Assembly (NCBI GenBank): GCA_041687695.1 | Contig: JAWLBL010000024.1 | Span: 1 to 64,000 of the forward strand | DNA length: 64,000 bases | Reading direction: 5' to 3' | Origin: Myxococcota bacterium | Lineage (GTDB): Bacteria; Myxococcota_A; UBA9042; PHBI01; JAWLBL01 | Shown: one piece after another, positions 3,460-27,148 of the stretch | How positions within the stretch are numbered: the first letter of the stretch is position 1 | How the letters are laid out: every line of letters starts with the position of its first letter | Translations under genes and position numbers: made by a program | Notes under the pieces: generated by a model | Told to the model about the DNA's origin: nothing | The model's database searches: none | What the model saw: the letters and a program-made list of their open reading frames with translations, nothing else

Positions 3460-3981
3460 ATGAAGGTGTTCGTGGGCGGTCCGATACAGTTCATGAGCGG
3501 GGACCCGGTGCTCCTTTCGACAATGAAGGAAGCCGTGGGATCATTGATCCAGGCGCTTCAGGTCGAGGGGATCCAAGTCCATAATGCTCACCTCGTCGAG
3601 CACTTCGGAGCGACCAGCGACGAGTGGCACCCATGCTCCATCTCCGAGCGCGACCTGGGCTGGATGCGTGATTGTGACGCGTTCGTGGCCCTGTTGCCGC
3701 CCGACGGGCATGGGAACCTGGCGCGCACCGATGGTACCCACGTGGAGTTGGGCTGGGCCTCGGCGCTGGGAAAGCCCATCGTGTTGGTCGTCGACTCGAG
3801 CCTCGTCCCGCAGTGCAGCCAACTCGTACAGGGGCTCTCTGCCATCGCTGCGGTGCAGTGGTTCGACTTTGCCGATGCGGTGAGGGACCCGAGCGCGCTG
3901 GTCCGCCTGGTCCGAGGGTTCACTCTGAATGCCGCCGAGCGCATCCCGAGTGCAGCGCCGAGCCGTGTCCAAGCACGTTGA
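3460..3981 (+). CDS. Nucleoside 2-deoxyribosyltransferase family (hm)CMP N-glycosidase, BlsM/MilB-like
   Basis: VFVGGP, D-x-FVA and GTHVELGWASALGKPIV motifs; AAGGAGG RBS before ATG 3460. Confidence 0.8.
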   Translation: MKVFVGGPIQFMSGDPVLLSTMKEAVGSLIQALQVEGIQVHNAHLVEHFGATSDEWHPCSISERDLGWMRDCDAFVALLPPDGHGNLARTDGTHVELGWASALGKPIVLVVDSSLVPQCSQLVQGLSAIAAVQWFDFADAVRDPSALVRLVRGFTLNAAERIPSAAPSRVQAR

Positions 3982-5057
3982 GTTCGCGCGCGCCCACCGT
4001 GGCATCGGTTGCACTCGTCTGGACGCAGCCAGGTAGCCAACTCCGAGAGCCCATGCCCTTCATGGTCAGTCGTCCACAGCCGTTGGAGCCGGAGAGTCTG
4101 GAGACCCGGTGGCGAAACGCCTACGCCGCCGCCGCGTTCTCGCCATTCGACGGCTACGAGGTGGCCTCGTCCGTGCCATCCGGCGCCGTGTCTGTGGCCG
4201 CCGGTGGCCTGCTGGGCTGCTACACGCGCGAGGGGGAGCTGGCCGTGTCCGTGCACACGGGCTCCGGCGTCCTCCGGGAGTCGGAGCGCTTTTGCGTGCG
4301 CACGCACTTCGAGCGCGTCCAGGCGGAGTCGGGCGCGTCCTCGGTGGTGTTGCCCATGGTGCATGAAGATCACCCCTTGGCCCGCGCCCTGTACGACCTG
4401 CAGGGAGCCCTCATCCTGCCTCGGCGGCCCACGGCTCAAATCGACTGGAGCGACGACGGCGCCTCCCTTTGGCGACGGTGTGAGGCGCGGCTGGGGACCC
4501 GGGCCGGACGCCGCCGCAGGCGGTTCGAGTCCGCGGGGTACGTCCTGACGACGCTGCGCGGCCGGGACGCCATGGACGCCATCGTCGAGGTCGAATCGAA
4601 GAGTTGGAAGGCGGCCGCGGGCCAGGGCATGGTCACCCGCGGACAGGTCGATCTGTACTCGGCGCTCCTCGGGAGCGCCGGCGGGAGCGCGCGTGTCGTC
4701 CTGTTCGAGGGGCAGCCCGTAGCCTATCGGCTGGACCACGTCGTAGGACGGACGCTGTGGTGTCTGAAGTGGAGCTTCGACGAGGGCCACCGTGCGACCT
4801 CGCCCGGATTCTACCTGCTGGCAGCCGACCTACCCCGCAGCGTAGAGGGCCTGGCTTTGGACCTCGTAGACCTGGCAGGCAGCCCGGATCACCTCAAGGT
4901 GAGTCTGCAGACCGGGACGCGCGAGCGCACAGCGTTCGCCTGGCCCGCCTCGGAGGCGGCGCGGCGCTGGTGCCGCGAGCGCCGCGCCCATGACGAGCGG
5001 ACCCGCCAGACCTGGCGCGCGGGCCATGGCATCCGACATGGCTACGAGGCTCCATGA
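3978..5057 (+). CDS. GNAT family (CelD/BcsL-like) protein; start uncertain (TTG 3978 or ATG 4053)
   Basis: VESKSWK and KWSFDEG...SPGFYLL resemble Acetyltransf_6; stop overlaps the next ATG. Confidence 0.6.
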   Translation: MSSRAPTVASVALVWTQPGSQLREPMPFMVSRPQPLEPESLETRWRNAYAAAAFSPFDGYEVASSVPSGAVSVAAGGLLGCYTREGELAVSVHTGSGVLRESERFCVRTHFERVQAESGASSVVLPMVHEDHPLARALYDLQGALILPRRPTAQIDWSDDGASLWRRCEARLGTRAGRRRRRFESAGYVLTTLRGRDAMDAIVEVESKSWKAAAGQGMVTRGQVDLYSALLGSAGGSARVVLFEGQPVAYRLDHVVGRTLWCLKWSFDEGHRATSPGFYLLAADLPRSVEGLALDLVDLAGSPDHLKVSLQTGTRERTAFAWPASEAARRWCRERRAHDERTRQTWRAGHGIRHGYEAP

Positions 5058-6040
5058 ACGGTCCAAGGATCGCCATCATTCGCCTGCTGGAGGCCTGCAA
5101 CGCGGGTTGCTTCATGTGCGACTTCGCCTGGTCCCGCACGCCTGTGAAGCTGACGCTCGCAGAGGCGCTCGCCCTGGTACGGCCCCTGAGCAGCGGGAGC
5201 GTCCGAGCCGTACGCTTCACCGGGGGCGAGCCGTTGCTCGTTCCCTGGCTGCCCGAGCTGGTGGACGCCTGCCGACGAGCGGGGCTCCTCGTCAGCACGC
5301 TCAGCAACGGCTGGCATCTCGCCGAGCGTGGGCCCGAGCTTGCCTCGGCGGGGCTCTCGCAGGTCGTCGTCAGCCTGGACGGCAGCCGGGCGCCCTCGCA
5401 CGACCGCTTTCGCCGCACGCCGGGCCTGTTCGACCGGCTGATTGAGGGCATCCGCTGGTTCCGGGCGCACGCACCCGCCGTCCGGCTGCGGGTCAACACG
5501 GTAGCCGGTCCTCACAACGTCGAGCAGCTCCCGGGGATTTGGGCCCTGCTCGAAGCCGAGGGGGTCGAGCAGTGGTCCATCATCCCTCTCAAGCGGGCCG
5601 ATGGAGCCTGGCGGAGCGCGACCGAGGACCGACTCCTCGCGTCCATGGCCGACCTCGAGGCCCTTGCGTCGTCTGGACGCGGCCCCCACTTGATGGGCTT
5701 CAGCGCACGCTGGGCCGGTCGCGATGAGGCCGAGCTGGGCAACCTCACCCGGGGCGACCGCAGCTTCACGCCGCGCGGTGAGTGCCGACTGGTGGACGCC
5801 GTGCGTTACGTCGTCCCGGACGAGGACCGCTCCTATCCATGCAACTGCGTGCCTCACCGCACGCAGGGGCGAGTCCTGGGGGAAGGGCTGGACGCCGATA
5901 CGTTCACGAGCAACGGCCTGCGGACGGCCAGAGACTGGCTCCGGGTCCACGGCCCCGAAGGCTGCACCGGCTGCGAGCCGGTGAACGCTGCGCTGGGCGA
6001 GGGCCTCATCGACCTCGACGAGGATCCGCTGGGTTTTTGA
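5054..6040 (+). CDS. Radical SAM enzyme, BlsE/MilG-like (acts on cytosylglucuronate)
   Basis: IRLLEACNAGCFMCDFA (CxxxCxxC), RFTGGEPL and C-terminal YPCNC...CTGC cysteines. Confidence 0.82.
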   Translation: MNGPRIAIIRLLEACNAGCFMCDFAWSRTPVKLTLAEALALVRPLSSGSVRAVRFTGGEPLLVPWLPELVDACRRAGLLVSTLSNGWHLAERGPELASAGLSQVVVSLDGSRAPSHDRFRRTPGLFDRLIEGIRWFRAHAPAVRLRVNTVAGPHNVEQLPGIWALLEAEGVEQWSIIPLKRADGAWRSATEDRLLASMADLEALASSGRGPHLMGFSARWAGRDEAELGNLTRGDRSFTPRGECRLVDAVRYVVPDEDRSYPCNCVPHRTQGRVLGEGLDADTFTSNGLRTARDWLRVHGPEGCTGCEPVNAALGEGLIDLDEDPLGF

Positions 6041-6052
6041 GGAGGTATCGCC

Positions 6053-7003
6053 GTGATGCACCCCCCCGGCCCCGAGCTCGACGCGGCGACCACCCGCATC
6101 GCCCGGGAGTATGGCAAGCAGACCGGCTTGCTGACCGCCTCGGGCATGGCAGCGATCGAATGCGCGCTCCGTTGGTCGGGGATCGGGCCGCGCGACTGGG
6201 TCGTGGTGCCGTCGGAGTGCTGCCACCGGGTGGTGGCCGCGGTCCTCGCGGTCGGGGCCCGGCCCCTGCTCGCGGACGCCCACGCCGATCTCTGCCTGTC
6301 ACCCGTCTCCCTGGCGCGCGCCCTCGAGGCGCTCCCGCGGCCGCACGTGCCCCGCGCGCTGGTCGCCGTGCACCACCTTGGCCTTCCCTGCGACGTGGCC
6401 GGACTTCGCGCCGTCGTGGGAGCCGAGGTGCTCATCATAGAGGACGCGGCCCAGGCCTTCGGCCTCGAGGCCCGGGGTGCCCCGGTGGGGAGCCACAGCG
6501 ACCTGGTCGTCACCTCCTTCGGCGCCACCAAGCCACTTTCGCTCAACGGCGGGGGCGGCGTGTTCGGATCCGCCGAGGCGCTGGCCCCGTCGCTCCCAGA
6601 GCGGGACTTGCCGCGCCTTCCTTGCGCCGCGCCGTTGCACCCGGCCGCCGTGGCGGGGCTCGACGCCGCCCTCGTCGCCGCGCGCGCTCGGGTCGCCGCC
6701 CGTAGGGCATGGGTGCAGGCGCGCCGGCCGCTCCTCGAGGCGCTCGGGTTGTCATCCTGGCGTCCCGCGCCCGGAGACGTGCCCTCCTGGCACCGACTGC
6801 CCTTGCGTGGTACGGCCGAGGCCATCCATGGGGCCGGCCTCGAGGGCCACGTCCAGAGCCCCCACCAGCTCCCGCTCTGGGAGCTCCCCATGTTCGCAGA
6901 CGCCGCCCTCCGTCCGGCCACCCGGGCGCGTCATCGGCTGCTCCGGCTCGATGACCTCGACGGGCTCGACGTGGCGCTGGGCTTGGCAGAGAGGGTCGCA
7001 TGA
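6053..7003 (+). CDS. DegT/DnrJ/EryC1/StrS aminotransferase family (short, divergent C-terminus)
   Basis: SGMAAI, IEDAAQAFG and SFGATKPL (PLP lysine). Confidence 0.8.
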   Translation: MMHPPGPELDAATTRIAREYGKQTGLLTASGMAAIECALRWSGIGPRDWVVVPSECCHRVVAAVLAVGARPLLADAHADLCLSPVSLARALEALPRPHVPRALVAVHHLGLPCDVAGLRAVVGAEVLIIEDAAQAFGLEARGAPVGSHSDLVVTSFGATKPLSLNGGGGVFGSAEALAPSLPERDLPRLPCAAPLHPAAVAGLDAALVAARARVAARRAWVQARRPLLEALGLSSWRPAPGDVPSWHRLPLRGTAEAIHGAGLEGHVQSPHQLPLWELPMFADAALRPATRARHRLLRLDDLDGLDVALGLAERVA

Positions 7004-8124
7004 GCCGCCCGATCCTCAACCCGGCCGCGCTCGGCGCCCTGACCATCGGTGAGGACGAGCGGAGGGCCGTGCTCGACGTGCTCAGCCGGAGGGAGCTCTT
7101 TCGGCACTTCGATGGCGCGAGCGAGTGCGACGCCCTCGAGCGCGAGCTCGGCACTCTCATGGACGCCAAGGCGCTGGTGCTCGGTTCGGGGACGTCGGCC
7201 CTTCGCGCGGCCCTCGTCGCGCTGGGCGTCGCCCGCGGGGACGTCGTGCTCGTCAGCGCCTGGACCTTCGTGGCGTCCGCCTCCGCCGTGATCTCCCTCG
7301 GCGCGTGTCCCCGCCCCGTGGACTCGGGGCCCGACCTCGGCGTCGATGTGAATGACTACCAGCGCAAGAGCTACGGAGCGGCTGCGGCGGTGCTCACCTA
7401 CCTGCCCGGGCACGCCAGCAACATCCACCTGCTCCCGCCCGTGGTCCCGGTGATCGAGGACGCCTGTCAGGCGCTGGGCGTCGGGGCTGGGTCCAGGATG
7501 GCCGGCGCCTGCGCGCACATCGGCGTCACCAGCTTCCAGCAAGGCAAGCAACTCAGCGCCGGTGAGGGCGGCGCCCTGTTCGCGCGAGAGCTGGCCCACG
7601 TCGAGGCCGCCCGCCGGTTCTCCGACCACGGCGCCGTCCGTGACGGGACGCCCGATTGGGAAGACCCCCGAGCGGACGTCGGCGAGAACCTGCGGATGAC
7701 CGAGCTGCAGGCGGCGCTGCTGCGGCCCCAACTCCGTCGCCTCCCTGGCATGCTGGCGGCCCAGCGCAACCTCAGGGACGCGCTGCGGGAGATCCTCCGA
7801 CGGCGTGGACTGCCAATCCTCGACAGCCGCCGCCCCGATGAGGACGCGGGGAGCCACCTCCTCATCCTCGCCGACAGCGCCGAGCAGGCTCGACGCTGGA
7901 GCCTCGCCGCCCGGGAGTCGGGGGTGCTGCTGCGTCAGGTCTGGCCCACGTGCTGGATGGATCTCGGCAGCCTTCGCCGCCGAGGCCTGCAGACGGACGC
8001 TGACGATTGCCCTCGGGCGCGGGACTGGGCTCCTCGGACGCTGGCGTTGCCGGTGCCGCCCCTGACGGGCGAAGCCGCGGTTGCCCTGCTCGAAGCCGTC
8101 GAGGAGTCCGCGCCATGGGCCTGA
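7000..8124 (+). CDS. DegT/DnrJ/EryC1/StrS aminotransferase (BlsH/MilD-like role inferred)
   Basis: SGTSAL, IEDACQALG, SFQQGKQLSAGEGG and NLRMTELQAA. Confidence 0.88.
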   Translation: MSRPILNPAALGALTIGEDERRAVLDVLSRRELFRHFDGASECDALERELGTLMDAKALVLGSGTSALRAALVALGVARGDVVLVSAWTFVASASAVISLGACPRPVDSGPDLGVDVNDYQRKSYGAAAAVLTYLPGHASNIHLLPPVVPVIEDACQALGVGAGSRMAGACAHIGVTSFQQGKQLSAGEGGALFARELAHVEAARRFSDHGAVRDGTPDWEDPRADVGENLRMTELQAALLRPQLRRLPGMLAAQRNLRDALREILRRRGLPILDSRRPDEDAGSHLLILADSAEQARRWSLAARESGVLLRQVWPTCWMDLGSLRRRGLQTDADDCPRARDWAPRTLALPVPPLTGEAAVALLEAVEESAPWA

Positions 8125-9062
8125 AGGTCGAGGCCGTCGCCCCAGACAGCTTCGCCCACCCCGCAGGGGACCTGGAGGTGTGGCAGGATCCGGCCACGGC
8201 TCCCCTGTTGGGCCCCTGCCGTCTCTGGGTGGCCTGGCGCCGCGGTGCGGTGGTCGGCAGCTGGCTCACCCCGACGCGGGGAGATGGCCGGGAGGCCGCC
8301 CGTGACGTGCGCGTACTACCCTACGCGTCGCCATGGCTCGCCCCTGGATCCGCGGATCGGCGTCGCCGTGTGTGGCGCGCGCTCCTCGAGGCCGTCGTCG
8401 CCGAGGTCGACCTCCTCGAGCTGCCCATGAGCCCCGGGTTCGATGGGCTCGGCGCGCTCAGCGCCGTGGGCTGCCTCGTAGAGACCCGCCACACCCATCT
8501 GCTCGAAGGTCTGCAGGCCCCGCAGGCCTCGTTCAGCCCCACGGCCCGGGCCCACGCGAGACGCGCCGCGGCGACCGTGCGCGTGACGCCACAGGCCGTG
8601 GACGCCTTCGACTTCGCGCGCGCCATCCACGGCGCCTCCGAGGCCAGCCTTGCTCGGCGCCGACGGTTCGCTACGTGCCTGGCGGAGCAGGGACGAGCCT
8701 GGGCGTTGGCGGCTCACTGCGAGGGGCGACCGCTCGGCGGGATCGTCGGCATCCGCTCGGCCGAGACCATCGTCGCGATGCACTCGTGGCACGATCGAGC
8801 CGGCCCGAGCGGCATACCGAGCCAGCTCGTCCTCGCGCTCGCTCGCCTCGCGCACGCGCACGGCGCCCGACGTGTCGACCTGGAGGGATCCGTCATCGCA
8901 GGCGTGGATCGCTTCATGGACACGGTCTCTTCGAGGGTCCTCCCGGTCCCCCACGTGCACTGGGCTCGCTCGCGGCGGCGACTGCTACTCAGCCTCGAAG
9001 AATCCCTGGCCATCCCGGGTCGCGTGGACCTCTGCGACCGCAGCGACGAGGGGCAACCATGA
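8115..9062 (+). CDS. GNAT/FemAB-like protein
   Basis: C-terminal VDLEGSVIAGVDRFM resembles the DFEGS motif of FemAB-related GNATs; coupled to both neighbours. Confidence 0.6.
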   Translation: MGLKVEAVAPDSFAHPAGDLEVWQDPATAPLLGPCRLWVAWRRGAVVGSWLTPTRGDGREAARDVRVLPYASPWLAPGSADRRRRVWRALLEAVVAEVDLLELPMSPGFDGLGALSAVGCLVETRHTHLLEGLQAPQASFSPTARAHARRAAATVRVTPQAVDAFDFARAIHGASEASLARRRRFATCLAEQGRAWALAAHCEGRPLGGIVGIRSAETIVAMHSWHDRAGPSGIPSQLVLALARLAHAHGARRVDLEGSVIAGVDRFMDTVSSRVLPVPHVHWARSRRRLLLSLEESLAIPGRVDLCDRSDEGQP

Positions 9063-9772
9063 GCGGCGAGTTGCTGGCGCTGCTCTATGACTGGCACAAC
9101 CGTCACCGGCTGAGCCGTCAGGCCGCCGACGTGCCCTTCTATCGGGACCTTCTACCCTCTGGGCGTGTCTGGGTCCTCGGCGCCGGGACCGGTCGCCTGG
9201 CCGTCCCGCTGGCCCGCTCAGGACGGCAGGTCGTGGCCGTCGACCGGGACGTCGCCCGACTGGACCGCATCCCAGACACCCCCGGGCTCTCGCGTTGGCA
9301 CGGCGACATCGCCCATCTGCCAGAGGCCGCCGACGCGGCGGCGGTGGCGCCCTACAGCACCCTCCAGCTCGTCTCCACACACGACCTGGCGGACTGCTTG
9401 CTGGGCGCTAGCCGGGTGCTCGGCCCCGACGGAGCGCTATGGTGCGATCTCAGCGACAGCTTCCAGGCGCGTCAGGGACACGCGCGTCGGCGCGTGATCG
9501 TCGCCGAGTGCCCCGAGCTGGGCGGGCCAGTGGCCGAGGACCAGGAGACCGTCGTGCACGCCGATCGCATCGAGCTGCGCGCTTGGTGGTCATTGCGCAG
9601 GCAGCCACTGGCCCACACCGTCGAGCACTGGCACTTCCATCCCACGCCGACGATCGTAGCAGCCGCCACCTCCGTGGGTCTGAGGCTGCTCGAGGAGCTG
9701 CGTGGATACGGGGCGCCCGAGACGCTGCATCGGCGCATCCTGGTCTTCGGGCGAGCCGGGAGGCGCGCGTGA
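9059..9772 (+). CDS. Class I SAM-dependent methyltransferase
   Basis: LYDW...DVPFY, VLGAGTGR, VAVD; ATGA overlap. Confidence 0.82.
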   Translation: MSGELLALLYDWHNRHRLSRQAADVPFYRDLLPSGRVWVLGAGTGRLAVPLARSGRQVVAVDRDVARLDRIPDTPGLSRWHGDIAHLPEAADAAAVAPYSTLQLVSTHDLADCLLGASRVLGPDGALWCDLSDSFQARQGHARRRVIVAECPELGGPVAEDQETVVHADRIELRAWWSLRRQPLAHTVEHWHFHPTPTIVAAATSVGLRLLEELRGYGAPETLHRRILVFGRAGRRA

Positions 9773-10551
9773 GCGTCGCGACGTTCCGAGAGCTGGCCCG
9801 GGCCGCGCCCGGCCGTCTCGCTGACCTCGAACCCAAGGCTCGCGGTCTGGTCGAGCTCGCGCGTTGGGGGCTGCCCGTTCCGGACGGGCTGCTCGTATGG
9901 CCGGACGGAGACGTCGTGGAGGTCGCCCGCCGCGCGGTGGACGTGTTCCGGAGTCAGCTCCCGGCCCCTTTGGGCACCCTACACGAGGGGCGCCCCGTCG
10001 CTGCGACCGTGCGCTTCGCCTGCAAGCGGCACCGTCCCGACCTGCCTCCGAGCTTCCTCGCGCTCGGCGCGACGGCCCCTCACGACCAGGACCGCGACCT
10101 GCGGCTCGCGCGCTTGGAGGCCGACCTGCCCGGCGCCCTGAAGCTGCGTGAGCTGCCTCCGGAGGCCGGCGTGCGGAGCGCAGTGACCCTCGCGCTCGCA
10201 TGGTGTCGGCGGCGCGGGGAGGCGTCTCCCGTCGTGGTGCAGCGAATGGTGTTTGGACGCGGCGCCGGCTCGGCCGCCGGGATGGCCTACACCCGCCCCC
10301 CCGAGGTCGGCTTGCCCGCCCCCTATGGGCGCTTCCGCCTCGACGCCGAGGGCTGGCGCTATGCTGAGTCCGGGCCCGAGGACAAGCGGGACCTCGGCGA
10401 GCTGGCCGAAGCCCTGCCGGAGGCCGCCGCCGCGTTGCTGGAGCTCCTGGACGCCCTCCATACGGCGGCGGGACAAACCCGCTACGTCGAGTTCGTGGTC
10501 GACCGCGGTCGGGTCTTTCTCGTTCAGAACACCCGAGGACGGCTCCCATGA
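9769..10551 (+). CDS. PPDK/PEP-synthase N-terminal (ATP-grasp) domain protein lacking the His-swivel domain
   Basis: KARGL...GLPVPDG, VVVQRMVFG, GMAYTR and VEFVVD...FLVQ; GTGA overlap. Confidence 0.68.
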   Translation: MSVATFRELARAAPGRLADLEPKARGLVELARWGLPVPDGLLVWPDGDVVEVARRAVDVFRSQLPAPLGTLHEGRPVAATVRFACKRHRPDLPPSFLALGATAPHDQDRDLRLARLEADLPGALKLRELPPEAGVRSAVTLALAWCRRRGEASPVVVQRMVFGRGAGSAAGMAYTRPPEVGLPAPYGRFRLDAEGWRYAESGPEDKRDLGELAEALPEAAAALLELLDALHTAAGQTRYVEFVVDRGRVFLVQNTRGRLP

Positions 10552-11621
10552 GTCTGGTCGAAGCGCTGGAGGCTTCGGCCGTGGCCCCACACCCGCTGCG
10601 CCTGCGGGACTGGCGAGGGGAGGTGCGCCTCGGCGGAGCCCGTCCACTGGTCGCGGCGGTGCGCGAGGCGTGCTGGCCCCATGTGCAGGTCGACCCGCAG
10701 GTGGCTCTGGGGACGGGGCCACTGTGGCCATCCGTGCGCCTCCACCTGGGCCTCGATCCGCTGCCGTGCCCCGAGCTTGGGGAGCCGGTGGTCTTCGCCT
10801 GCTCCACGGTGCGGGTCTTGCGTGGACACCGCGGACATGTGGGGGCGTGGACCGTGGTCCACAACCCGACGAGCGGGGCGCTCCTCGCGCGACGCGGCGA
10901 CCAGCTGATGGTGCGCCCTACGCGCCCGACGCCGCCCGAGTCCCTGACCGCCGACGCCACGAGCCTGCTGCGCCTGCTGACCCGACGACGGGACGAAGCC
11001 GCGGGAGCGCGGCTCTTGCACGGCGCCTGCGTGTGCCCGACGGGGGGCGACGCGGTCCTGCTGTGCGGGAGCAAGGGTGGAGGCAAGTCGACCCTCATGG
11101 CCGCGCTCCTGAAGGCCGGCGCGAGCTACGTCGCGGGCGATCGAACCCTGATCCGGCTGGCGGTCGACGGCGACGGCGACGGCGACGGGGCGCGCCTCGA
11201 GGTGACCGGCTTCGTCGATCCGGTCCGACTCGGGCCGCTCGCCCTCGAGCACCTCGGCCTGCATGCCGATGTGGGCTTGGCGCTGCCCGGCAAGCGAGCC
11301 CTGAGCGCTCGCGCCCTGTGCGCCGCCACGGGTGCCGGTGGTCGCCCGAAGGCCCGCCTCCAGGCCATCATCCACTCGGCCTGGCGCCCCGATGCGCCAG
11401 CTCGCGCCCAGCGTTGTCGCGTCCGGGACCTTCCTGAGCTGGAGGACTTCACGCATCGCGATCCAACCTACTTCGACTGGCTCCAGGCGGACTCTCCTCG
11501 ACCAGCTCCTGGCCCTGTCCATGACGCGCTGGCCTCGCTGCCCGCCCTGGCCCTCAGCGGTGCCTACTCCCTGGACTCAGCCACCCGTGAGATCCTCGCA
11601 TGGTGGGGGACCCTGACATGA
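10548..11621 (+). CDS. HPr kinase-like P-loop kinase
   Basis: LHGACV, LLCGSKGGGKSTL and YVAGDRTLI. Confidence 0.72.
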   Translation: MSLVEALEASAVAPHPLRLRDWRGEVRLGGARPLVAAVREACWPHVQVDPQVALGTGPLWPSVRLHLGLDPLPCPELGEPVVFACSTVRVLRGHRGHVGAWTVVHNPTSGALLARRGDQLMVRPTRPTPPESLTADATSLLRLLTRRRDEAAGARLLHGACVCPTGGDAVLLCGSKGGGKSTLMAALLKAGASYVAGDRTLIRLAVDGDGDGDGARLEVTGFVDPVRLGPLALEHLGLHADVGLALPGKRALSARALCAATGAGGRPKARLQAIIHSAWRPDAPARAQRCRVRDLPELEDFTHRDPTYFDWLQADSPRPAPGPVHDALASLPALALSGAYSLDSATREILAWWGTLT

Positions 11622-11628
11622 GGACGCC

Positions 11629-12747
11629 ATGAGCACGCTAATCGTTCTTCGGGGCCCGCCGGCCTGCGGCAAGACCACCGTGGCCCATCTCCTCCGGGAG
11701 CGCCTCGCCCCGGCCATCCGCCTGAGCGTCGACGCCTTGCGTTACTTGGGGCTGCCGCGCGTTCTCACGCCCGAGGACCTTCGAGCCGCCGAGGCTGGCG
11801 CCGTGGACCTGGCGCTCCGAGAGCTCGGCCGAGGTCGTACGGCCATCGTGGACAGCGTGTTCGACGACCCCCTGACCGTCATGGAGGTGCGGATCCGGGT
11901 GGAGGCCGCCGGCCACCGCGTCTTCGTCGTGACCCTGCGCGCCGACGTCGAGGAGGCGGTGGCGCGCAACGCGGCGCGCGGCCCCCTCGACGCGATGGAC
12001 GCGGAGCGCCTGCGGGAGGTCCACACCGACTTCCCAGACGTCCCCGGCCTGGTCCTTGGCACCAGCGAGCGCCTCCCAGAGGAGGTCGCCGATGCCATCG
12101 TAGGCGCGCTTCCCCGCGGACCGTCGCCGGCGCCCTCGGATGCGGCCGTGCTCTTCGTCCGCCACGCGCAAGCCGCCTCGCCCCGCGATCGCTACCCCGA
12201 CCACGCCCGCCTCGGCCTGAGCGACGTCGGCCGGGCTCAGGCCCGCGCGGCGCGTGCGGCCGTCGCGGCTTTCGGGCCCACCCGCGTCGTCTGCTCCCCG
12301 CTCCTCCGCGCCACCCAGACGGCGGATGTCCTCGTCGGCGCTGGAGCCTACGAGGTCGACCCGCGCGTGAGCGAGCGCGTCTTCCCGGCCCTCGCCGATC
12401 TGAGCTGGGCTTCGATAGCCTCCCGCCACGGCGATGTCTTCGTCGACCGACTCCGCCGGTCTCCGGACGAGATCTCCATGGCCGACTGCCAGCCGGTCGA
12501 GCTCTGGCAGCGCGGCTGTGTGGCGGCCATCGAGGAGGCCATGGACACCCCAGAGCCGGCGCGGCTGCTGGTGGTCTCTCACGGCGGCCCTCACGGTTGG
12601 TGGGTGAGTCACCTCCTGGGCATGCCGCTCAGCGCGCAGCGGCGGATCTACTTGGCCAAAGCCCACGGCACCCTGGTACGCTGGACGGACCCACCGACCC
12701 TCGCGGCCATGAACCTCTCGCTCCACGAACCCTGGGGGCTACCATGA
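11629..12747 (+). CDS. P-loop nucleotide/small-molecule kinase fused to a histidine phosphatase
   Basis: N-terminal GPPACGKTT; C-terminal FVRHA, SPLLRATQTA and VVSHGG. Confidence 0.82.
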   Translation: MSTLIVLRGPPACGKTTVAHLLRERLAPAIRLSVDALRYLGLPRVLTPEDLRAAEAGAVDLALRELGRGRTAIVDSVFDDPLTVMEVRIRVEAAGHRVFVVTLRADVEEAVARNAARGPLDAMDAERLREVHTDFPDVPGLVLGTSERLPEEVADAIVGALPRGPSPAPSDAAVLFVRHAQAASPRDRYPDHARLGLSDVGRAQARAARAAVAAFGPTRVVCSPLLRATQTADVLVGAGAYEVDPRVSERVFPALADLSWASIASRHGDVFVDRLRRSPDEISMADCQPVELWQRGCVAAIEEAMDTPEPARLLVVSHGGPHGWWVSHLLGMPLSAQRRIYLAKAHGTLVRWTDPPTLAAMNLSLHEPWGLP

Positions 12748-13538
12748 ACACCGAGCGCCGTGACGGCACCGCCGTGAGCGCGGACGCGCACCTCGAGGCG
12801 ATCCTCTACGACTGGGAGTGTCGGCAATTCCTGAGACGACAGCTCGGGGACGTGCGCTTCTACAAGCGCCACGCCCAGGGACGGGTCTTGGAGCTCGCCT
12901 GCGGCACGGGGCGTGTCACCGAGGCCCTCCTGGATGCAGGCCACCCCGTGACCGCCCTCGACGTTCACTCGGGCATGCTCGCTCAGGCTCGCAAACGTCT
13001 CGGTGAGCGGGCGTCGCTGGTCGAGGCGGACATGCGCCAATTCGAACTGGCCTCCCAGTTCGACACCGTGGTCATCGCGTACAACAGCTTCCAGCTCCTC
13101 CACTCGCTGTCCGATCAGGAGGCCTGCCTCCGGCGCATCCGGGAGCACCTCGTCCCGGGCGGGCGGCTCCTCTTCGAGGTCACCCCCTTCCTCCTCCGCG
13201 ATCCGCCATCGGACTGGTCGCATCGTGCCACCGCCCATTTGCACGCGGATCCGACGATCGCGGGCGACGGGACCGTCGTGTCCGCCTGGGAACGATGCCG
13301 CACCCGCCCCTCTGCCCAACTCAACCACTTCGACGTCCGCTACGAGCTCTTCGGGACCGACGGGACGCGCCTGGAGCTGCATCACACCCTCACTCTGCGC
13401 ACGATCTTTCGTTTCGAACTCGAGTTGTTGCTGACGGCCTGTGGCTTCGCGGTCGAGCGGATCGACGGCGATTACGACGGCACACCCCTCGAAGCATGCG
13501 AAGACGAAGGGATGGTCGTCTCCGCGCGCACCACCTGA
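12744..13538 (+). CDS. Class I SAM-dependent methyltransferase
   Basis: LYDW...DVRFY, VLELACGTGR, ADMRQF, HLVPGGRL. Confidence 0.88.
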   Translation: MNTERRDGTAVSADAHLEAILYDWECRQFLRRQLGDVRFYKRHAQGRVLELACGTGRVTEALLDAGHPVTALDVHSGMLAQARKRLGERASLVEADMRQFELASQFDTVVIAYNSFQLLHSLSDQEACLRRIREHLVPGGRLLFEVTPFLLRDPPSDWSHRATAHLHADPTIAGDGTVVSAWERCRTRPSAQLNHFDVRYELFGTDGTRLELHHTLTLRTIFRFELELLLTACGFAVERIDGDYDGTPLEACEDEGMVVSARTT

Positions 13539-13548
13539 GGGCCTGCGC

Positions 13549-15198
13549 GTGTGTGGCTTCGCGGGGGTCCTGGGAGAGCCGGCCGAGGACGCTGCCTCGG
13601 TGTGGCGCACCCTGGAGCGCCGCGGTGTGCCCGACGGGAGTTGGACCTGCGGTCGCTTTCGAGGCTGGCAGTCCCGGCTCGCCATCGTGGCGCCCGAGGA
13701 GGGGCGCCTCCCGGTTTCGTGGACCCTGTCGCCCGACCACCACATCGTCCTTTTTGGAGCCGGCCAGATCCACAACCATCTCGCCCTTCGGCGCCTGCTG
13801 TCAGCCGCCGACCGCGCGCGCGCCCCCAGCAGCGATCTGGCCCTGGTGGGGCTCCTGTGGGCCCGGTTCGGCTTGCAGGGGCTCCGGCTGCTCCGGGGGC
13901 CCTATTCGGCGGCCATCTGGGAGCAGCGGGAGGGTCGACGGCGCCTGTGGCTGTGCCGCGACCGTCTGGGACGTCGTCCTCTGTTCGTCGCGCGATCGCC
14001 TGGTCGCCTCGCCTTCGCGACGAGCATCGCGACCCTGAAGTGTCTCCACCCCGTCGGAGCTCCCTGTCCAGACCGTGTCCTGCAGTTTCTGGGCGCTGGC
14101 ACCACCTGCGCCGATGGTGCCGTTCACCGCGACATCGAGAGCGTGCCGCCCGGGGGCGTCTGGGGCTTCGACCTCGACGGAGGCTGCGTCATGCAGGCCC
14201 GGCTCCCCCCTCCCGCGCTCACGGGGCTGCCCCTCGGAGCGGTGCTCGCGGCCGCGATGGAGCGCATTCGCCTCGCCGACACGCCCCCAGTCCTGGCGCT
14301 GTCGGGTGGCGTGGACTCCTCCTGGATGGCCCTCCGTCTGGCGCGACACGGGCCCGTGAACGCCATCACCTTGGTGCGCCCGGGCGTCTCGGATCCAGCA
14401 TCGTCGCGGTCGGCGCAGGTGGCACGGACACTGGGGCTCCGGAGCGCCGTCGTGTCCTGGGAGCCTCCTCCGGCCGCTCGGGCGCTCGCCTGCCTCTCCG
14501 AGCGCGTGGATCGTCCCGCCTCCACCCCGGCCGTTCTACACAATGACGCGCTGCACGCAGCCGTCCCTGGCCGCCTGCTCCTCGGCGGTCACGGCGCGGA
14601 CGAGGTCCTGGGCGGCTACGGCCGCTACGTCGCCTTCGCCACCGGCCAGCCTCCGGCGTGGTCGCGAGCCGAGCTGGCCTTGCGTGTGTGCCCCGAGTTC
14701 GTGCGCGGCCGGAGAGCGCTCGCAGACTGGATCGCCGCCTCCTCGTCTTCCGAGCGCCTCGCGCGCTGGTGGGACCTGACCCTCTTGCAGGCTTGGGACA
14801 ACTTCCACCTGCCCGACGAAAATGGCCTCCACCACGGAGTGGAGGTCCGGTCTCCGTTCCTGGACCTGGACGTGGTGCGAAGCGGACTGTCGGAGCCGAC
14901 CTCACACAAGGAGGTCCTGCGCGCCGAGCTCCGCAGCGTGCTCCCCTCCGAGCTCGTCGACGCTCCCAAGTCGGGGTTCGACACCCCGTTCGACTATGCG
15001 GCGTGGCTCATCAGCGAGTGGCCGGATCTTCGACGCGCCTGGCTCGGTTCAGAAGCCGAGACACTCGTCCCGCGCCATCTGCGCGCCCTGCTGCAGGACG
15101 CCGAGGCGCCGCGCTTGGCGCCTCTCCTTGCATGGCGCGCCGTGGCGCTGAGCGCGCACCTTCAGAGCCATCGACGCCCCCAGATCCTCGGCCAGTGA
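13549..15198 (+). CDS. Asparagine synthase (AsnB)-like glutamine amidotransferase
   Basis: GTG start gives MCGFAG (Ntn Cys2); [28 protein letters not shown] and EVRSPFLD. Confidence 0.85.
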   Translation: MCGFAGVLGEPAEDAASVWRTLERRGVPDGSWTCGRFRGWQSRLAIVAPEEGRLPVSWTLSPDHHIVLFGAGQIHNHLALRRLLSAADRARAPSSDLALVGLLWARFGLQGLRLLRGPYSAAIWEQREGRRRLWLCRDRLGRRPLFVARSPGRLAFATSIATLKCLHPVGAPCPDRVLQFLGAGTTCADGAVHRDIESVPPGGVWGFDLDGGCVMQARLPPPALTGLPLGAVLAAAMERIRLADTPPVLALSGGVDSSWMALRLARHGPVNAITLVRPGVSDPASSRSAQVARTLGLRSAVVSWEPPPAARALACLSERVDRPASTPAVLHNDALHAAVPGRLLLGGHGADEVLGGYGRYVAFATGQPPAWSRAELALRVCPEFVRGRRALADWIAASSSSERLARWWDLTLLQAWDNFHLPDENGLHHGVEVRSPFLDLDVVRSGLSEPTSHKEVLRAELRSVLPSELVDAPKSGFDTPFDYAAWLISEWPDLRRAWLGSEAETLVPRHLRALLQDAEAPRLAPLLAWRAVALSAHLQSHRRPQILGQ

Positions 15199-16238
15199 TC
15201 GCCGAGATCATTGGGTCCCAGATCCGCACCGGGCAGCGGCTCGGCCATGGCCTCTACGTGGGCCGCCAGGGGGGCTGATAGGGGCACCCCGAGCGAGGGC
15301 AGGCGACGCAAGACGTAAGCGGCACCGGCGGACAAGCCGAGCTCGATGACGATCTCCAGGGCGCGGGCGTGTTCGGCAGGGGAGGCGGTCGCGACCAGCG
15401 CGGCTACGTCGGCGCATTGATGCGCGCCTCGCCCGAAGCGCTGCACACCCTCCCAGTAGAGCTTGTAGACGGCCAGCGCGATCGACCAGCTTCGGTCGGC
15501 CAGGCAGAGGCCGTCGAGGCGGACCGCGTCGCGCAGCAGGCGCCGCGTGGACACGGCGGGGTTGATTCCGTGGTGCGCGTCCACCACGAGGAAGAGGACG
15601 GCGCGGCCCGATCGGACCGTCCAGGGGAGGCTGCAAACGGCCGCGACTCGGCTCACGAGATCGACGGACACGCGCTGAGGCGAGAGCTCCACGGGGCGGA
15701 CCAGGTAGCCGAGCTCGTAGTGCTCGGCCTCGACCAGGCGCCGACGCTCGAGATCGGGGCGCACGAACTCGCGCATCCGGGGGTTCCAGTCCGCGGCGCT
15801 GTAGCCGGCTTCCAAGAGCAGGCGCTCGGCCCGTTCGAGCTCTTCGGGCCAAACGGCGAGATCGAGATCCCGACCCACGCGGCGCAGGCCCGTCCAGCGC
15901 CGCACGGCGCTCCCCTTCATCCAGGCGTGTCGGATCCCTTCTTCGTCGAGGCGCGCTCCGAGGCGGCCGAGCTCGTCGTCCTGCAAGCGGGCCGTCAGCT
16001 CGGCAAGGTCCGCCAGATCACGGGCCAGGCGGAGCTGTGGCCGCTCCCCATCACATCGGTCCGAGGAGGGGCCGAGCAGATGGGGCGCGACCTGCCAGAG
16101 CTCGATGGCCAGACGGTCGAGGCCGCTGGGGACGCCATCGCCGCGGCTCTCGGCGCGAGGTCCGAGCCAGGGCGCGAGGTCGACTAGCGCCGCGAGGCTG
16201 CGACGTCCGGCGTCGTCATTCACGGCCTGATGCGTCAC
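15162..16238 (-). CDS. Nucleotidyltransferase family protein (NTP_transf_5-like)
   Basis: WMKGSA...RVGRDLDLAV motif; 3' end overlaps the asnB-like gene convergently. Confidence 0.72.
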   Translation of the reverse strand: MTHQAVNDDAGRRSLAALVDLAPWLGPRAESRGDGVPSGLDRLAIELWQVAPHLLGPSSDRCDGERPQLRLARDLADLAELTARLQDDELGRLGARLDEEGIRHAWMKGSAVRRWTGLRRVGRDLDLAVWPEELERAERLLLEAGYSAADWNPRMREFVRPDLERRRLVEAEHYELGYLVRPVELSPQRVSVDLVSRVAAVCSLPWTVRSGRAVLFLVVDAHHGINPAVSTRRLLRDAVRLDGLCLADRSWSIALAVYKLYWEGVQRFGRGAHQCADVAALVATASPAEHARALEIVIELGLSAGAAYVLRRLPSLGVPLSAPLAAHVEAMAEPLPGADLGPNDLGDHWPRIWGRRWL

Positions 16239-16773
16239 TCGAGGGCGACCGGACCCGACCAGACACGGGGCCCTCGGTCGTCACAGGGCGGAGCGCGTCG
16301 ACCCGAGCGGACACGGGCCCGTCGGTCGCGACCACACCCGACACCGGAATGGGCGAGGCCGACAGCGGGCCGAGGTGTCGGACCAGGGCCGCCGCGACGG
16401 CCTCGACGTCCGCGTCCGTGAGGGTCCGGTTGCCGCGGAGGACGGGAGTGCCGGGCGAGGCGGCGGCCACCGAAGGAATGGGAGAGGCCGAGACGGCCGG
16501 GATCGGGGAAGCCGAGACCATGGGGGTAGGCGAGGCCGACAAGCCGCCGCGGCCAAAGCGCCGAGCGGGCGCGGTGCGCCCCGTGCTCAGCCGGCTGGCG
16601 ACGAGATCGGCCAGGATCTCGAGCTGGCTCCGGCGGGACATGCCGAGCCTGCGTGCGACGGCGCTGGCGACATGATCGGCCAGGAAGTCCATGTCTGGGG
16701 ACTTGGGAGTGGGCGAGGCGCTGCTCTCAGCGAGGGCGAGACGGAGGAGCTCCTGGAGGTCACGACGAGGCAT
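16216..16773 (-). CDS. Small repeat protein with five SASP(I/T)P motifs; candidate precursor or acceptor peptide
   Basis: ATG 16773 with AAGGA RBS; overlaps both neighbouring genes; the amino-acid repeats use different synonymous codons. Confidence 0.7.
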   Translation of the reverse strand: MPRRDLQELLRLALAESSASPTPKSPDMDFLADHVASAVARRLGMSRRSQLEILADLVASRLSTGRTAPARRFGRGGLSASPTPMVSASPIPAVSASPIPSVAAASPGTPVLRGNRTLTDADVEAVAAALVRHLGPLSASPIPVSGVVATDGPVSARVDALRPVTTEGPVSGRVRSPSSDASGRE

Positions 16774-17893
16774 GGCGAGTCCTTGTGTCGGTGAGGGTGG
16801 CGTTTCGGACGATGAGTTCGGCAACCGAGTCCTGGCCCGGCTCCGTCCAGCGATGCCGGACGAAGGCGCCGAGGCCGGGAAGGGGGTCCTCCTGCGTCTT
16901 CAGCAGGCCCCGCAGCCTGTCTCCCAGGACGTCGGAGTAGGGCCCCAGGCAGGCCCGCAGCGCGGCCTCGACGGCCGCGACGCCGATCGCTTCGGGGAGC
17001 CCGGCAGGGATCCGAAGCGAGGGATGGATGGCGCTCAAGGGAACCAGGCAGCCGGGCGGGAGCACGTCGCGGTAGCGCTCGAGGATGAGGGCCTGGCTGT
17101 AGTTCTGCGGCGGTAGGAAGCGCGGAGGGACGCCCATGGACAGGGCCTCCACGGTCGTGGTGATCCCAGGGGCCGTGATGAGCCGCTCGCAGCGGGCGAG
17201 GCGTCTGACGAACTCGTCGTGCGGCAGATGCCCGATCTGCACGTTCGGGTAGTCGTCGCGCAAGGCCGCGCTGAGCGCCGCGTTCGTGCAGACGAGGACG
17301 GAGCCGTAGCGGGTCGTCGCTTCGGGCAACAACGCCTCGAGCACGAGACGCGCATAGCGCAGGTAGAGATCACCATGCACGAAGGGGTTGGCCAACCCCG
17401 ACAGGTTGATGAGCAGCTCCCCGGACCGCGGGCCTCGGGCGACACCCTGGGCGGCATCGATCGGAGGCACCGCCCGCCGATTGCTGCCGAACTCGACCTC
17501 GCGGTCGAGGAGGAAGTCCTGGACGAATACAGCCTGGGCGTTGTCGATGCCGGGGGGCGGCGCGTGCCACATCCAGTCGAGGCTGTCCACGACGTACAAC
17601 GGCGGATCGACGACCGGGTTCCAGTCGGCGGCGACCGACATGTTGAGGACGCTGACCACTGCGGTCGCATCGGCCGCGGTACGGCGTAGTCGCGCCCGGC
17701 CCAGGTCGGTGTCCACCGCCAGCTCGTGAATCTCGTCGAAGACGTGGGCGCGTCGTGCAAAATCGAGGGCGATGCCGTCACCGTAGAACGCCAGGACGGC
17801 TTCGTGACATCGGCGCTGCAGGGCCCGTGCGATGGTCACCGCCTTCGACACGGGACCGAAGCCGAACGATGTGGACAGAAACACGAACCTCAT
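16760..17893 (-). CDS. Cytosylglucuronate (CGA) synthase-related glycosyltransferase, BlsD/MilC-like
   Basis: GT-B-like FGFGPVSK, VDSLDWMW and APGITTTVEA...LPPQNYSQ; same cluster as the BlsM- and BlsE-like genes. Confidence 0.72.
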   Translation of the reverse strand: MRFVFLSTSFGFGPVSKAVTIARALQRRCHEAVLAFYGDGIALDFARRAHVFDEIHELAVDTDLGRARLRRTAADATAVVSVLNMSVAADWNPVVDPPLYVVDSLDWMWHAPPPGIDNAQAVFVQDFLLDREVEFGSNRRAVPPIDAAQGVARGPRSGELLINLSGLANPFVHGDLYLRYARLVLEALLPEATTRYGSVLVCTNAALSAALRDDYPNVQIGHLPHDEFVRRLARCERLITAPGITTTVEALSMGVPPRFLPPQNYSQALILERYRDVLPPGCLVPLSAIHPSLRIPAGLPEAIGVAAVEAALRACLGPYSDVLGDRLRGLLKTQEDPLPGLGAFVRHRWTEPGQDSVAELIVRNATLTDTRTRHASS

Positions 17894-25238: not shown

Positions 25239-25471
25239 AAATAGGGCCTACCTTGCCGGACGCATGAGTGCCCCGTTGGTTTACAGGGCGGCCGCGTAAG
25301 TCGCTGGAATCACGCGACTCCATCTCGCCCGTCCGCGACGCCCGCCGGCGTGTGGCTCGTGCCCATCGCCGTCACTCCGGGAGGCTACGGCGAACCGCAG
25401 GGCCTGAACCCTCATGATGAACCACTTGCAAAAGGTTACGCGTCGCGTTACTTTTTGCGCGAGGTTCAGCG

Positions 25472-27087: not shown

Positions 27088-27148
27088 CGTGCGAGCCGGC
27101 CGCCTTCGCCGGCGTCCCTTCATCATCCGCTGACGCGCGAGGTCGACG

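Follow-up and report, generated by a model that had tools for sequence, protein, structure and literature searches.

The stretch of DNA analysed here, hereafter the window, comprises 64,000 nucleotides of contig JAWLBL010000024.1 from a Myxococcota bacterium (assembly GCA_041687695.1). Within it, positions 3460-17893 hold a close-packed cluster of 15 genes, 12 on the plus strand converging on three on the minus strand, in which homologues of the enzymes that build the cytosine nucleoside core of blasticidin S and mildiomycin lie among genes for kinases, a nucleotidyltransferase and an orphan repeat protein. The first boundary is the ATG of a BlsM-like gene and the second the start of a minus-strand glycosyltransferase gene, and both fall exactly where the original prediction, made by a model from the sequence, had placed them. 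That prediction described 14 coupled genes in two convergent operons; the convergence stands, as do the mostly overlapping junctions, whereas the count is 15. The genes, with the lengths of their products in amino acids (aa) and their leading profile matches, are as follows.

3460..3981, plus strand: BlsM/MilB-like nucleotide N-glycosidase, 173 aa (PF05014 Nuc_deoxyrib_tr, 6.3e-11, 42.9 bits, cut-off 28.8)
4053..5057, plus strand, start approximate: tandem-GNAT (Acetyltransf_6) enzyme 1, Fem-like (PF13480, 7.3e-10)
5054..6040, plus strand: BlsE/MilG-like radical S-adenosylmethionine (SAM) enzyme, 328 aa (TIGR04466, 1.5e-55, full length)
6053..7003, plus strand: DegT-like pyridoxal phosphate (PLP) enzyme, recognisable in its N-terminal large domain only, 316 aa (PF01041, 3.3e-28, profile positions 23-192 of 360)
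7000..8124, plus strand: full-length DegT/DnrJ/EryC1-type sugar aminotransferase, 374 aa (PF01041, 4.2e-47, 161.5 bits, profile positions 5-352 of 360)
8115..9062, plus strand: tandem-GNAT enzyme 2, predicted aminoacyl-tRNA-dependent peptide synthase, 315 aa (PF13480, 2e-5, and weak LPG_synthase_C)
9059..9772, plus strand: SAM methyltransferase 1, 237 aa (Methyltransf_25, Methyltransf_11)
9769..10551, plus strand: stand-alone PPDK-N-like ATP-grasp protein, 260 aa (NF004531, 6.9e-12, and TIGR01828, 1e-8, both on the long open reading frame)
10548..11621, plus strand: HprK-like P-loop kinase, 357 aa (TIGR04355, 8.7e-5; TIGR04352, 4.8e-4)
11629..12747, plus strand: kinase-phosphatase fusion, AAA_33/CPT-like plus His_Phos_1, 372 aa (His_Phos_1, 3.8e-27; AAA_33, 1.5e-11)
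12744..13538, plus strand: SAM methyltransferase 2, 264 aa (Methyltransf_25, 1.1e-18)
13549..15198, plus strand: AsnB-type glutamine amidotransferase, 549 aa (Asn_synthase, 8.8e-25; GATase_7, 1.1e-17)
15162..16238, minus strand: NTP_transf_5 nucleotidyltransferase, 358 aa, or 353 aa if translation begins at the GTG at 16223 (PF14907, 1.3e-10, 41.8 bits, cut-off 31.2)
16216..16773, minus strand: orphan Ser/Ala/Pro-repeat open reading frame (ORF) 'rep', 185 aa (no Pfam match)
16760..17893, minus strand: CGA-synthase-like GT-B glycosyltransferase, 377 aa (TIGR04467, 1.2e-21)

All of these genes read in an open frame from a plausible start to a TGA stop. Of the eleven plus-strand junctions, seven are 4-base overlaps and one is a 10-base overlap, the remaining gaps being 7, 10, 12 and 71 bases; both minus-strand junctions overlap, and the 3' ends of the two operons overlap by 37 bases (AsnB stop at 15198, NTP_transf_5 stop at 15162). 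Because the window has a G+C content of about 72%, genes were chosen by G+C at third codon positions (GC3), homology and start context. Every family call of the original prediction was recovered by profile, embedding (Atlas) or structure searches. It had not recognised an arginine aminomutase, a tRNA-synthetase-like ligase or an exporter, and Pfam and NCBIfam scans of the 15 ORFs in 3460-17893 likewise gave no family match for an exporter or for the aminomutase and ligase of an arginine-derived side chain. A reading of the cluster as anti-phage defence was tried and rejected: PADLOC returned only generic similarity, to methyltransferases and to radical SAM proteins (pVip, 60 bits, where BlsE gives 189).

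The first gene, preceded by AGGAGG upstream of its ATG, encodes a protein whose six matches in a search of the PDB are all cytidine monophosphate (CMP) or hydroxymethyl-CMP N-glycosidases, the best being BlsM itself (5vto, 2.9e-14), and whose catalytic glutamate stretch, G-T-H-V-E-x-G-W-A-S-A, aligns identically with that of BlsM. By homology it is a member of the BlsM/MilB family of CMP (or hydroxymethyl-CMP) N-glycosidases, and we propose that it frees cytosine from CMP. The radical SAM enzyme carries C-x3-C-x2-C at residues 15-22 and is closest in the PDB to BlsE (7vob, 3.5e-50; next structure 2.4e-8), and its second-best profile family reaches 77.5 bits. For the glycosyltransferase, cytosylglucuronic acid (CGA) synthase is the best NCBIfam family and the sole other match, MJ1255/VC2487, scores 19.5 bits; all tested members of this glycosyltransferase family score 35-77 bits against the CGA synthase model. 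Both enzymes miss their curated equivalog cut-offs (glycosyltransferase, 77.3 against 300 bits for TIGR04467; radical SAM enzyme, 189 against 400 bits for TIGR04466). Two of the three core enzymes therefore fail strict equivalog membership, yet to judge from their profile and structure matches they are nearer to the Bls/Mil enzymes than to anything else, and the radical SAM enzyme is best described as a distant member of the BlsE branch and not an equivalog. BlsE has reportedly been re-assigned as a dehydratase. An older assignment made it a decarboxylase (PMC3715490). According to the account in bioRxiv 10.64898/2026.02.25.707955, the glycosidase of the blasticidin and mildiomycin pathways frees the base, the glycosyltransferase couples the base to UDP-glucuronate, the radical SAM enzyme performs 4'-oxidation and 3'-dehydration, and a PLP enzyme then aminates the product. 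A DegT-type PLP aminotransferase, of the kind that would install a 4'-amino group, is present in the window as the full-length gene and a half-length second copy, the latter retaining the S-F-x-x-x-K lysine and recurring in the same half-length form in a related metagenomic locus, L056 (see below). The original prediction had named homologues of the CMP glycosidase, CGA synthase, radical SAM enzyme and DegT aminotransferase, and Pfam, NCBIfam and the PDB agree with it; the proteins group with BlsM and BlsE and, more weakly, with BlsD, and this BlsM-, BlsE- and CGA-synthase-like homology supports its view that a modified cytosine hexose nucleoside core would be made.

The genes that would elaborate this core include two paralogous tandem-GNAT enzymes. 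The second was modelled with AlphaFold2 from an 11-sequence alignment, A2, that included the first (predicted local distance difference test, pLDDT, 87.9), and a Foldseek search with the model placed the aminoacyl-tRNA-dependent peptide synthases Sba18 and Sbb17 at the top (1.8e-13, template-modelling score 0.68, 313 aligned columns). Ranks 1-10 are all aminoacyl-tRNA-dependent enzymes (Sba18, Sbb17 and FemX, 1.8e-13 to 6.2e-11), with MprF and acetyl-CoA-using tandem GNATs further down and CoA users from rank 11. In sequence-only searches of the PDB, the first enzyme had no match, and the A2 profile and that of the glycosyltransferase alignment A1 returned nothing significant. The model thus has the tandem GNAT fold of the Fem/Sba18/MprF-C type, and from this fold we infer that the two enzymes probably take amino acids from charged tRNAs. 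Since they probably supply the amino acids, the cluster would have no need of a synthetase-like ligase. Homologues of the first enzyme occur in L056, L021 and L077 (2e-52 to 3e-35), and homologues of methyltransferase 1 in L055 and L056. Methyltransferase 2 matches a daptide-type methyltransferase model at 7.9e-30, under its cut-off. The AsnB-type protein aligns over the full length of TIGR01536 from profile position 1 (6.4e-35) and begins GTG-TGC, so that the glutaminase cysteine stands directly behind the start codon. A lasso peptide cluster in the window was considered and rejected: there is no B1 or B2 protein, and the AsnB protein appears to be a true N-terminal nucleophile (Ntn) amidotransferase, which keeps its N-terminal cysteine and reaches only 46 of the 525 bits that the lasso cyclase model requires.

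Four genes handle phosphate. Within the nucleoside operon, translational coupling extends to the PPDK-N-like and HprK-like genes, and the NTP_transf_5 gene is co-transcribed with the glycosyltransferase gene. Assignment of the kinase draws on weak profile matches, an Atlas similarity of 0.96 to HPr kinase family clusters and a single PDB match, to HprK/P (1ko7, E 0.022); its P-loop is intact. The PPDK-N-like protein has an Atlas similarity of 0.91 to PPDK_N clusters and reaches the Pfam PPDK_N model only at E 0.006. The AAA_33 domain of the kinase-phosphatase fusion resembles chloramphenicol phosphotransferase (7.5e-7). The NTP_transf_5 protein has the G-S...D-L-D motif and gave no match in a sequence-only PDB search; word-based homologue searches with it and with the HprK-like kinase returned only each query's own record.

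Between the glycosyltransferase and NTP_transf_5 genes lies the repeat ORF, in which S-A-S-P-[TI]-P occurs five times and A-A-S-P-G-T-P once, its short predicted helices alternating with S-A-S-P-x-P linkers. Its ATG, with AAGGA 8 bases upstream, overlaps the glycosyltransferase stop by 14 bases, its TGA overlaps the NTP_transf_5 start, and its GC3 (0.83) is like that of its neighbours; by start context, overlaps and GC3 it looks translated, although an antisense ORF at 16037-16675 shows the same third-position signal, so that composition by itself does not decide the strand. An exhaustive HMMER search of 1.84 billion representatives returned one 99% twin and one spurious 841-aa repeat protein. 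AlphaFold2 without an alignment gave four short helices and an otherwise uncertain structure (pLDDT 46), and prediction of a complex with the NTP_transf_5 protein scored 0.00 against a mark of 0.34, which speaks neither for nor against binding.

The glycosyltransferase has 33 homologues in a set of 5.8 billion proteins, with a best identity of 51%. Among them are ten proteins of 538-560 aa, six of which carry PF05014 and are therefore BlsM-glycosyltransferase fusions; such fusions also occur in two of the loci described next, L057 and L067. Alignment A1, of 25 glycosyltransferase homologues, led to 49 loci from species genomes and 34 from metagenomes which, together with one relative's locus, make 84 non-self loci totalling 1.30 Mb (designated L with a number). 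All ORFs of these loci were compared with the 15 window proteins by phmmer, and since many loci are short or end at contig ends, the resulting counts are lower bounds. Within 10 kb of the glycosyltransferase, BlsM-like matches occur in 43 of the 84 loci, BlsE-like matches in 42 and DegT matches in 42. Matches to the AAA_33/His_Phos_1 protein, fused or split, occur in 20 and are strongest in L056, L080, L021 and L077, where they stand beside both GNATs. Tandem-GNAT enzymes 1 and 2 are matched in 7 and 5 loci, AsnB in 3, the HprK-like kinase in 5 and, weakly, the NTP_transf_5 protein in 2 (the last two in a single pass); the PPDK-N-like protein and the repeat ORF are matched in none. The best synteny is that of L056, which holds the glycosyltransferase, GNAT1, half-length DegT, GNAT2, a methyltransferase, the AAA_33-His_Phos_1 fusion, DegT, a BlsE-like gene and an ABC-F gene. 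In Streptomyces filipinensis (L048), the radical SAM protein passes the BlsE cut-off (410.5 against 400 bits) and the adjacent glycosyltransferase, 29% identical to that of the window, scores 69.9 bits on the CGA synthase model, which argues that glycosyltransferases of the window type partner bona fide BlsE.

Hosts in the locus records include Paenibacillus, Anoxybacillus, about 20 Xenorhabdus species, Bordetella ansorpii, Chthoniobacter, Cellulosilyticum and one Streptomyces, together with planctomycete, Binatia and Myxococcota metagenome-assembled genomes (MAGs), and of 60 genomes from the same order and class as the window, one had a match to the glycosyltransferase. The original prediction had regarded such pathways as mainly actinomycete; this holds for the characterised ones, while the gene family itself is spread over many phyla. 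Literature searches found no characterised cluster with this gene set, which agrees with its expectation of a new pathway, no characterised non-actinomycete cluster of the blasticidin or gougerotin type, and no described product for any related locus.

Several of these loci deserve mention on their own account. The roughly 20 Xenorhabdus loci, L039 among them, share conserved BlsM-like, DegT, AAA_33-like and glycosyltransferase genes with a weak BlsE-like match; no paper on a product was found, and the rhabdobranin paper contained none of the nucleoside terms searched for. Paenibacillus ehimensis (L016), like L012 and L014, has a 17-gene one-strand cluster encoding a PLP beta-replacement-type enzyme, AsnB, an HprK-like kinase, a HAD phosphatase, an aminoglycoside-phosphotransferase-like (APH) kinase, a BlsE-like radical SAM-SPASM protein, two DegT enzymes, a BlsM-like enzyme, the glycosyltransferase, an Acetyltransf_6 protein, a nonribosomal peptide synthetase (NRPS) module (condensation-adenylation-thiolation, C-A-T), a methyltransferase, a GNAT and two ATP-binding cassette (ABC) exporters. 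We take this Paenibacillus cluster to be a candidate for a gougerotin- or bagougeramine-like compound from a cultured strain, the bagougeramine link being our assumption. L067 combines an NRPS, an HprK-like kinase, an NTP_transf_5 protein, a paralogue of elongation factor P (EF-P), SpoU and UPF0020/RlmKL-like methyltransferases, the BlsM-glycosyltransferase fusion, DegT, APH and three radical SAM proteins. Between its NTP_transf_5 and fusion genes (L067:5665-9406) lie those for the EF-P paralogue, which is N-terminally extended, the UPF0020/RlmKL-like methyltransferase and the SpoU-type RNA 2'-O-methylase, and by homology these look like ribosome-directed self-resistance for a translation inhibitor; ABC-F (ribosome-protection) genes occur in L056 and L053. 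Finally, L013, L030, L051 and L052 form a distant glycosyltransferase branch that always carries NMT1/THI5-like, APH and HprK-like genes (with NTP_transf_5 in L051) and lacks BlsM, BlsE and DegT; from its gene content it may represent a separate, unstudied glycoside pathway.

In an iterated search, HprK-like genes adjoin the glycosyltransferase family in 10 of the 84 loci, namely the three Paenibacillus loci, L013, L030, L051, L052, the identical L057 and L061, and L067, and they usually lie next to an APH or AAA_33 kinase. NTP_transf_5 genes do so in 4 loci representing three lineages (Pfam: L057/L061, 2e-59; L067, 4.8e-36; L051, 8.1e-37), each of which also holds an HprK-like gene. Scores from the iterated hidden Markov models are circular, because the models were built from the same sequences, and independent support comes from pairwise phmmer E-values and from Pfam and NCBIfam matches. 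The kinase and transferase loci fall in at least four separate clades of a tree of 82 glycosyltransferases (FastTree, midpoint rooted). Four HprK-like proteins from these loci match the model of the FomB family of small-molecule kinases (3.5e-8 to 3e-5), and no peptide-handling genes are in view beside the kinase in L012, L014, L016, L013, L030, L051, L052 or L067; for these two reasons we favour the nucleoside as the substrate of the kinase and transferase. The original prediction had joined a nucleoside arm to an arm resembling pathways for ribosomally synthesized peptides that are modified after translation (RiPPs), and the two do co-occur as far as HprK-like and NTP_transf_5 genes are concerned (L057/L061, L067 and L051), whereas the repeat ORF is matched in none of the 84 loci.

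The kinase and nucleotidyltransferase that mark phosphorylated RiPPs are both present in the window, and precedents for their pairing are peptidic. HprK homologues phosphorylate a serine of precursor peptides, and in pseudomycoidin biosynthesis a paired nucleotidyltransferase adds hexoses to that phosphate (PMC8498205). Precursors of linear polyphosphorylated peptides (LPPs) are described as 35-200 aa long; LppN was inactive in a heterologous host, the authors' speculation being that it relies on a partner to make a rare substrate (PMC13381572). One related locus brings the two kinds of gene together: at L057:16106-21090, identically in L061, a lasso/LPP-type cassette directly continues the cytosine-nucleoside operon on the same strand, the intergenic gaps measuring 10-18 bases. 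Its members are a B2-type protease (Transglut_core3, 1.9e-16), a small ORF at 16748-16960 that carries a Y-x-x-P-x-L motif and is a candidate precursor, an HprK-like kinase, a GNAT, the NTP_transf_5 protein and a PqqD protein that falls short of the lasso PqqD model's cut-off (79.3 against 80 bits); the locus sequence shows no cyclase. In the window itself, no cluster ORF matches the RiPP recognition element (RRE, PqqD), the genome's two PF05402 matches lying on contigs C11 and C12. The cluster holds no leader peptidase of the B2 or SpI-like kind (the genome's only Transglut_core3 match is on contig C6), the repeat ORF contains no [Y/W]-x-x-P-x-[LVIFA] leader motif, Y-x-x-P-x-L included, and no candidate small precursor ORF was seen in the intergenic stretches read.

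Our preferred reading, which we regard on homology grounds as probable, is that the cluster makes an undescribed cytosine peptidyl nucleoside with a pyranosyl sugar, akin to blasticidin S, mildiomycin and gougerotin, and that its phosphate set acts on that nucleoside. The BlsM-like glycosidase would free cytosine from CMP, the CGA-synthase-like glycosyltransferase would join it to UDP-glucuronate, and the BlsE-like radical SAM and DegT enzymes would turn the sugar into a 4'-amino-deoxy-hexuronate. The two Fem-like tandem-GNAT enzymes, their fold taken from the model and their substrates inferred, would transfer amino acids from aminoacyl-tRNAs onto amino groups, AsnB would amidate a carboxylate in the manner of gougerotin's GouB, and methylation of the product would fall to the two methyltransferases. 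The AAA_33-His_Phos_1, PPDK-N-like, HprK-like and NTP_transf_5 proteins may act on the nucleoside through transient phospho-, diphospho- or nucleotidyl intermediates; phosphorylation could serve self-protection of the producer or activation, with the phosphatase stripping the phosphate late. Transient phosphorylation or nucleotidylation is known in other nucleoside pathways, such as those of polyoxin and nikkomycin.

A number of observations weigh against this proposal. With the glycosyltransferase and radical SAM enzyme under their curated cut-offs, the base, the sugar and the exact radical SAM chemistry are putative only. The scan of 3460-17893 with Pfam and NCBIfam found no exporter and no recognised resistance gene, and a translationally coupled repeat ORF of 185 aa is given no role. 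As to the phosphate set, the window HprK-like protein does not match the FomB model at E <= 0.01, the HprK-like call in L067 is weak (E 5e-4 to 7e-3), and the excess of NTP_transf_5 genes is modest, at three lineages against 0.65 expected in 1.30 Mb (Poisson P 0.028), the expectation being taken from the density in the window's own genome (four PF14907 matches in 7.97 Mb). The lasso-type cassette of L057 directly abuts nucleoside genes, and the only characterised HprK-like and NTP_transf_5 pairs, described in PMC8498205 and PMC13381572, act on ribosomal peptides.

The last two points lead to the main alternative, in which the nucleoside is joined through a serine phosphate to a ribosomal polypeptide, the repeat protein in the window and a lasso-type precursor in L057. 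Here the HprK-like kinase would phosphorylate a serine of the repeat ORF product or another peptide, and the NTP_transf_5 enzyme would link a rare nucleoside-sugar to that phosphate, much as pseudomycoidin, a phosphoglycosylated lasso peptide, is made by an HprK homologue and a nucleotidyltransferase (PMC8498205). The length of the repeat ORF lies within the range of LPP precursors, LppN, so its authors speculate, needs a partner supplying a rare substrate (PMC13381572), and the ORF, with six serine-rich motifs of the S-A-S-P-x-P type, is coupled between the glycosyltransferase and NTP_transf_5 genes; in L057, the nucleoside genes run into the lasso-type cassette (B2, leader-motif ORF, HprK-like, NTP_transf_5, PqqD). 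Attachment to a ribosomal peptide or protein was indeed what the original prediction had proposed, and in that form it lacks support: the window cluster lacks an RRE/PqqD, a B2 or other leader peptidase and a leader motif; the repeat ORF is an orphan, known from its 99% twin and matched in none of the 84 loci; L067, L051 and the Paenibacillus loci hold the kinase, with or without NTP_transf_5, and no peptide-handling genes in view; and L057 could be two neighbouring clusters. Given the lack of peptide-handling genes in the window and an orphan repeat ORF with a low-confidence fold, we consider such a conjugate unlikely, both as a general account and in the specific form of a repeat-protein or lasso-type acceptor. 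If true, peptide and nucleoside would here be conjugated by enzymes that have no relation to the microcin C route, and the NTP_transf_5 enzymes of lasso and LPP clusters, so far without a substrate, would draw on unusual nucleoside-sugars supplied by genes nearby.

The product might instead be a different N-glycoside, with another base (hydroxymethylcytosine or another pyrimidine or purine) or another sugar donor, outside the blasticidin and gougerotin series. The low CGA synthase scores (77 against 300 bits here, 35-77 bits for the tested family), the 29% identity to the Streptomyces enzyme, and the L013, L030, L051 and L052 branch with NMT1/THI5-like, APH and HprK-like genes and no BlsM, BlsE or DegT all lend it some weight. 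It is countered by the first gene, whose solved relatives are only CMP or hydroxymethyl-CMP glycosidases, by the preference of the glycosyltransferase for the CGA synthase model over its other match, by the pairing of this glycosyltransferase type with a cut-off-passing BlsE in L048, and by the BlsM-glycosyltransferase fusions, which tie the base-releasing to the base-using step; we judge it improbable. Least credible to us, and very improbable, is that the chemistry of the product has nothing to do with the PPDK-N-like, HprK-like, NTP_transf_5 and repeat genes, which would then be passengers or regulators, or that the repeat ORF is not a gene. All four are very divergent or orphan, the PPDK-N-like gene and repeat ORF are confined to this locus, and the best-matching nucleoside module, L056, lacks all four; yet they are interleaved and coupled with core genes, with NTP_transf_5 and the repeat ORF in the operon of the essential glycosyltransferase, the kinase and NTP_transf_5 recur beside the glycosyltransferase (10 and 4 of 84 loci, at least four clades), and the catalytic motifs (P-loop, G-S...D-x-D) are intact.

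Around the cluster, most flanking genes have a GC3 of 0.93-0.98, against 0.79-0.88 for the cluster genes. Some 8-10 kb downstream lie an AbiEi antitoxin gene (25421-26266) and an AbiEii nucleotidyltransferase toxin gene (26161-27087), followed by a large serine recombinase gene (27134-28486). The lower GC3, the AbiE pair, the recombinase and the match to the glycosyltransferase in just one of 60 relatives' genomes suggest, without proving it, horizontal acquisition of the cluster. A dienelactone hydrolase domain (4.1e-25; 18264-19000, minus strand) is encoded in the 3' part of a spurious ORF of 723 aa that lies antisense to a porin gene (19230-20546); the real gene is probably one of about 220 aa ending 370 bases upstream of the glycosyltransferase start. 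A strong G-over-C skew was seen at 18000-19000 and in the first 3 kb of the window.

Nucleosides of the blasticidin, gougerotin and mildiomycin type block the peptidyl-transferase centre of the ribosome, and their characterised pathways are all actinomycete. The window and its 84 related loci point to a second, distant family of the core enzymes across many phyla (Paenibacillus, Xenorhabdus, Anoxybacillus, Chthoniobacter, Planctomycetes and MAGs), and the cluster is a variant within this widespread, uncharacterised, non-actinomycete branch. Its tailoring set is unusually rich, with two putatively tRNA-dependent enzymes for adding amino acids, an amidotransferase, a pair of methyltransferases and four phosphate enzymes, and makes a new chemotype plausible. 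The most interesting element is the recurring association of the glycosyltransferase with HprK-like and NTP_transf_5 genes, which offers a concrete candidate substrate for RiPP-pathway enzymes that have none assigned and sets two readings against each other, small-molecule (di)phosphorylation for self-protection and peptide-nucleoside conjugation.

Among known systems, FomA and FomB are self-resistance kinases of the fosfomycin producer. The window resembles them in pairing an HprK-like P-loop kinase with a second small-molecule kinase, and differs in that its substrate would be a nucleoside and not a phosphonate and in the failure of its kinase to reach the FomB model. An HprK-like kinase with an NTP_transf_5-type enzyme is likewise found in the paeninodin, pseudomycoidin and LPP (LppK/LppN) systems (PMC8498205, PMC13381572); what the window lacks beside these phosphorylated RiPPs is an RRE, a leader peptidase, a recognisable precursor leader, a cyclase and an MsbA-type exporter, and its pair sits among nucleoside-sugar genes. 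The tandem-GNAT fold is shared with FemX and with Sba18 and Sbb17 (PDB 9wqy and 9wqx, with streptothrisamine), which act on an amino-sugar antibiotic scaffold, although sequence identity is only 20-21% and sequence-only PDB searches miss them. Gougerotin and, we presume, the bagougeramines of Bacillus are further kin of the window pathway. In the gougerotin cluster (gouA-gouN), GouB carries out amidation of the sugar carboxylate, GouJ an N-acetyltransferase-type condensation of amino acid with nucleoside and GouN N-methylation (PMC12835213), and AsnB, the two GNAT-fold enzymes and the two methyltransferases are the window's counterparts, matched by description and not by sequence. The 4-amino sugar of gougerotin is attributed in that source to GouA, GouF and GouH, with no BlsE-type radical SAM enzyme named, and among the gou genes it describes there are neither kinases nor a nucleotidyltransferase (PMC12835213), unlike in the window. 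With the Streptomyces blasticidin S and mildiomycin pathways (BlsM/MilB, BlsD/MilC, BlsE/MilG and BlsH/MilD), the window shares the glycosidase, the glycosyltransferase that couples a base to UDP-glucuronate, the radical SAM enzyme and the PLP aminotransferase. It departs from them in the sub-equivalog scores of its glycosyltransferase and radical SAM enzyme and in lacking an arginine 2,3-aminomutase, a synthetase-like ligase and an exporter, and its host genome, high in G+C, is not obviously that of an actinomycete; what the window has in addition is an AsnB enzyme, four phosphate-handling genes, a repeat ORF and two tandem-GNAT enzymes that probably add amino acids.

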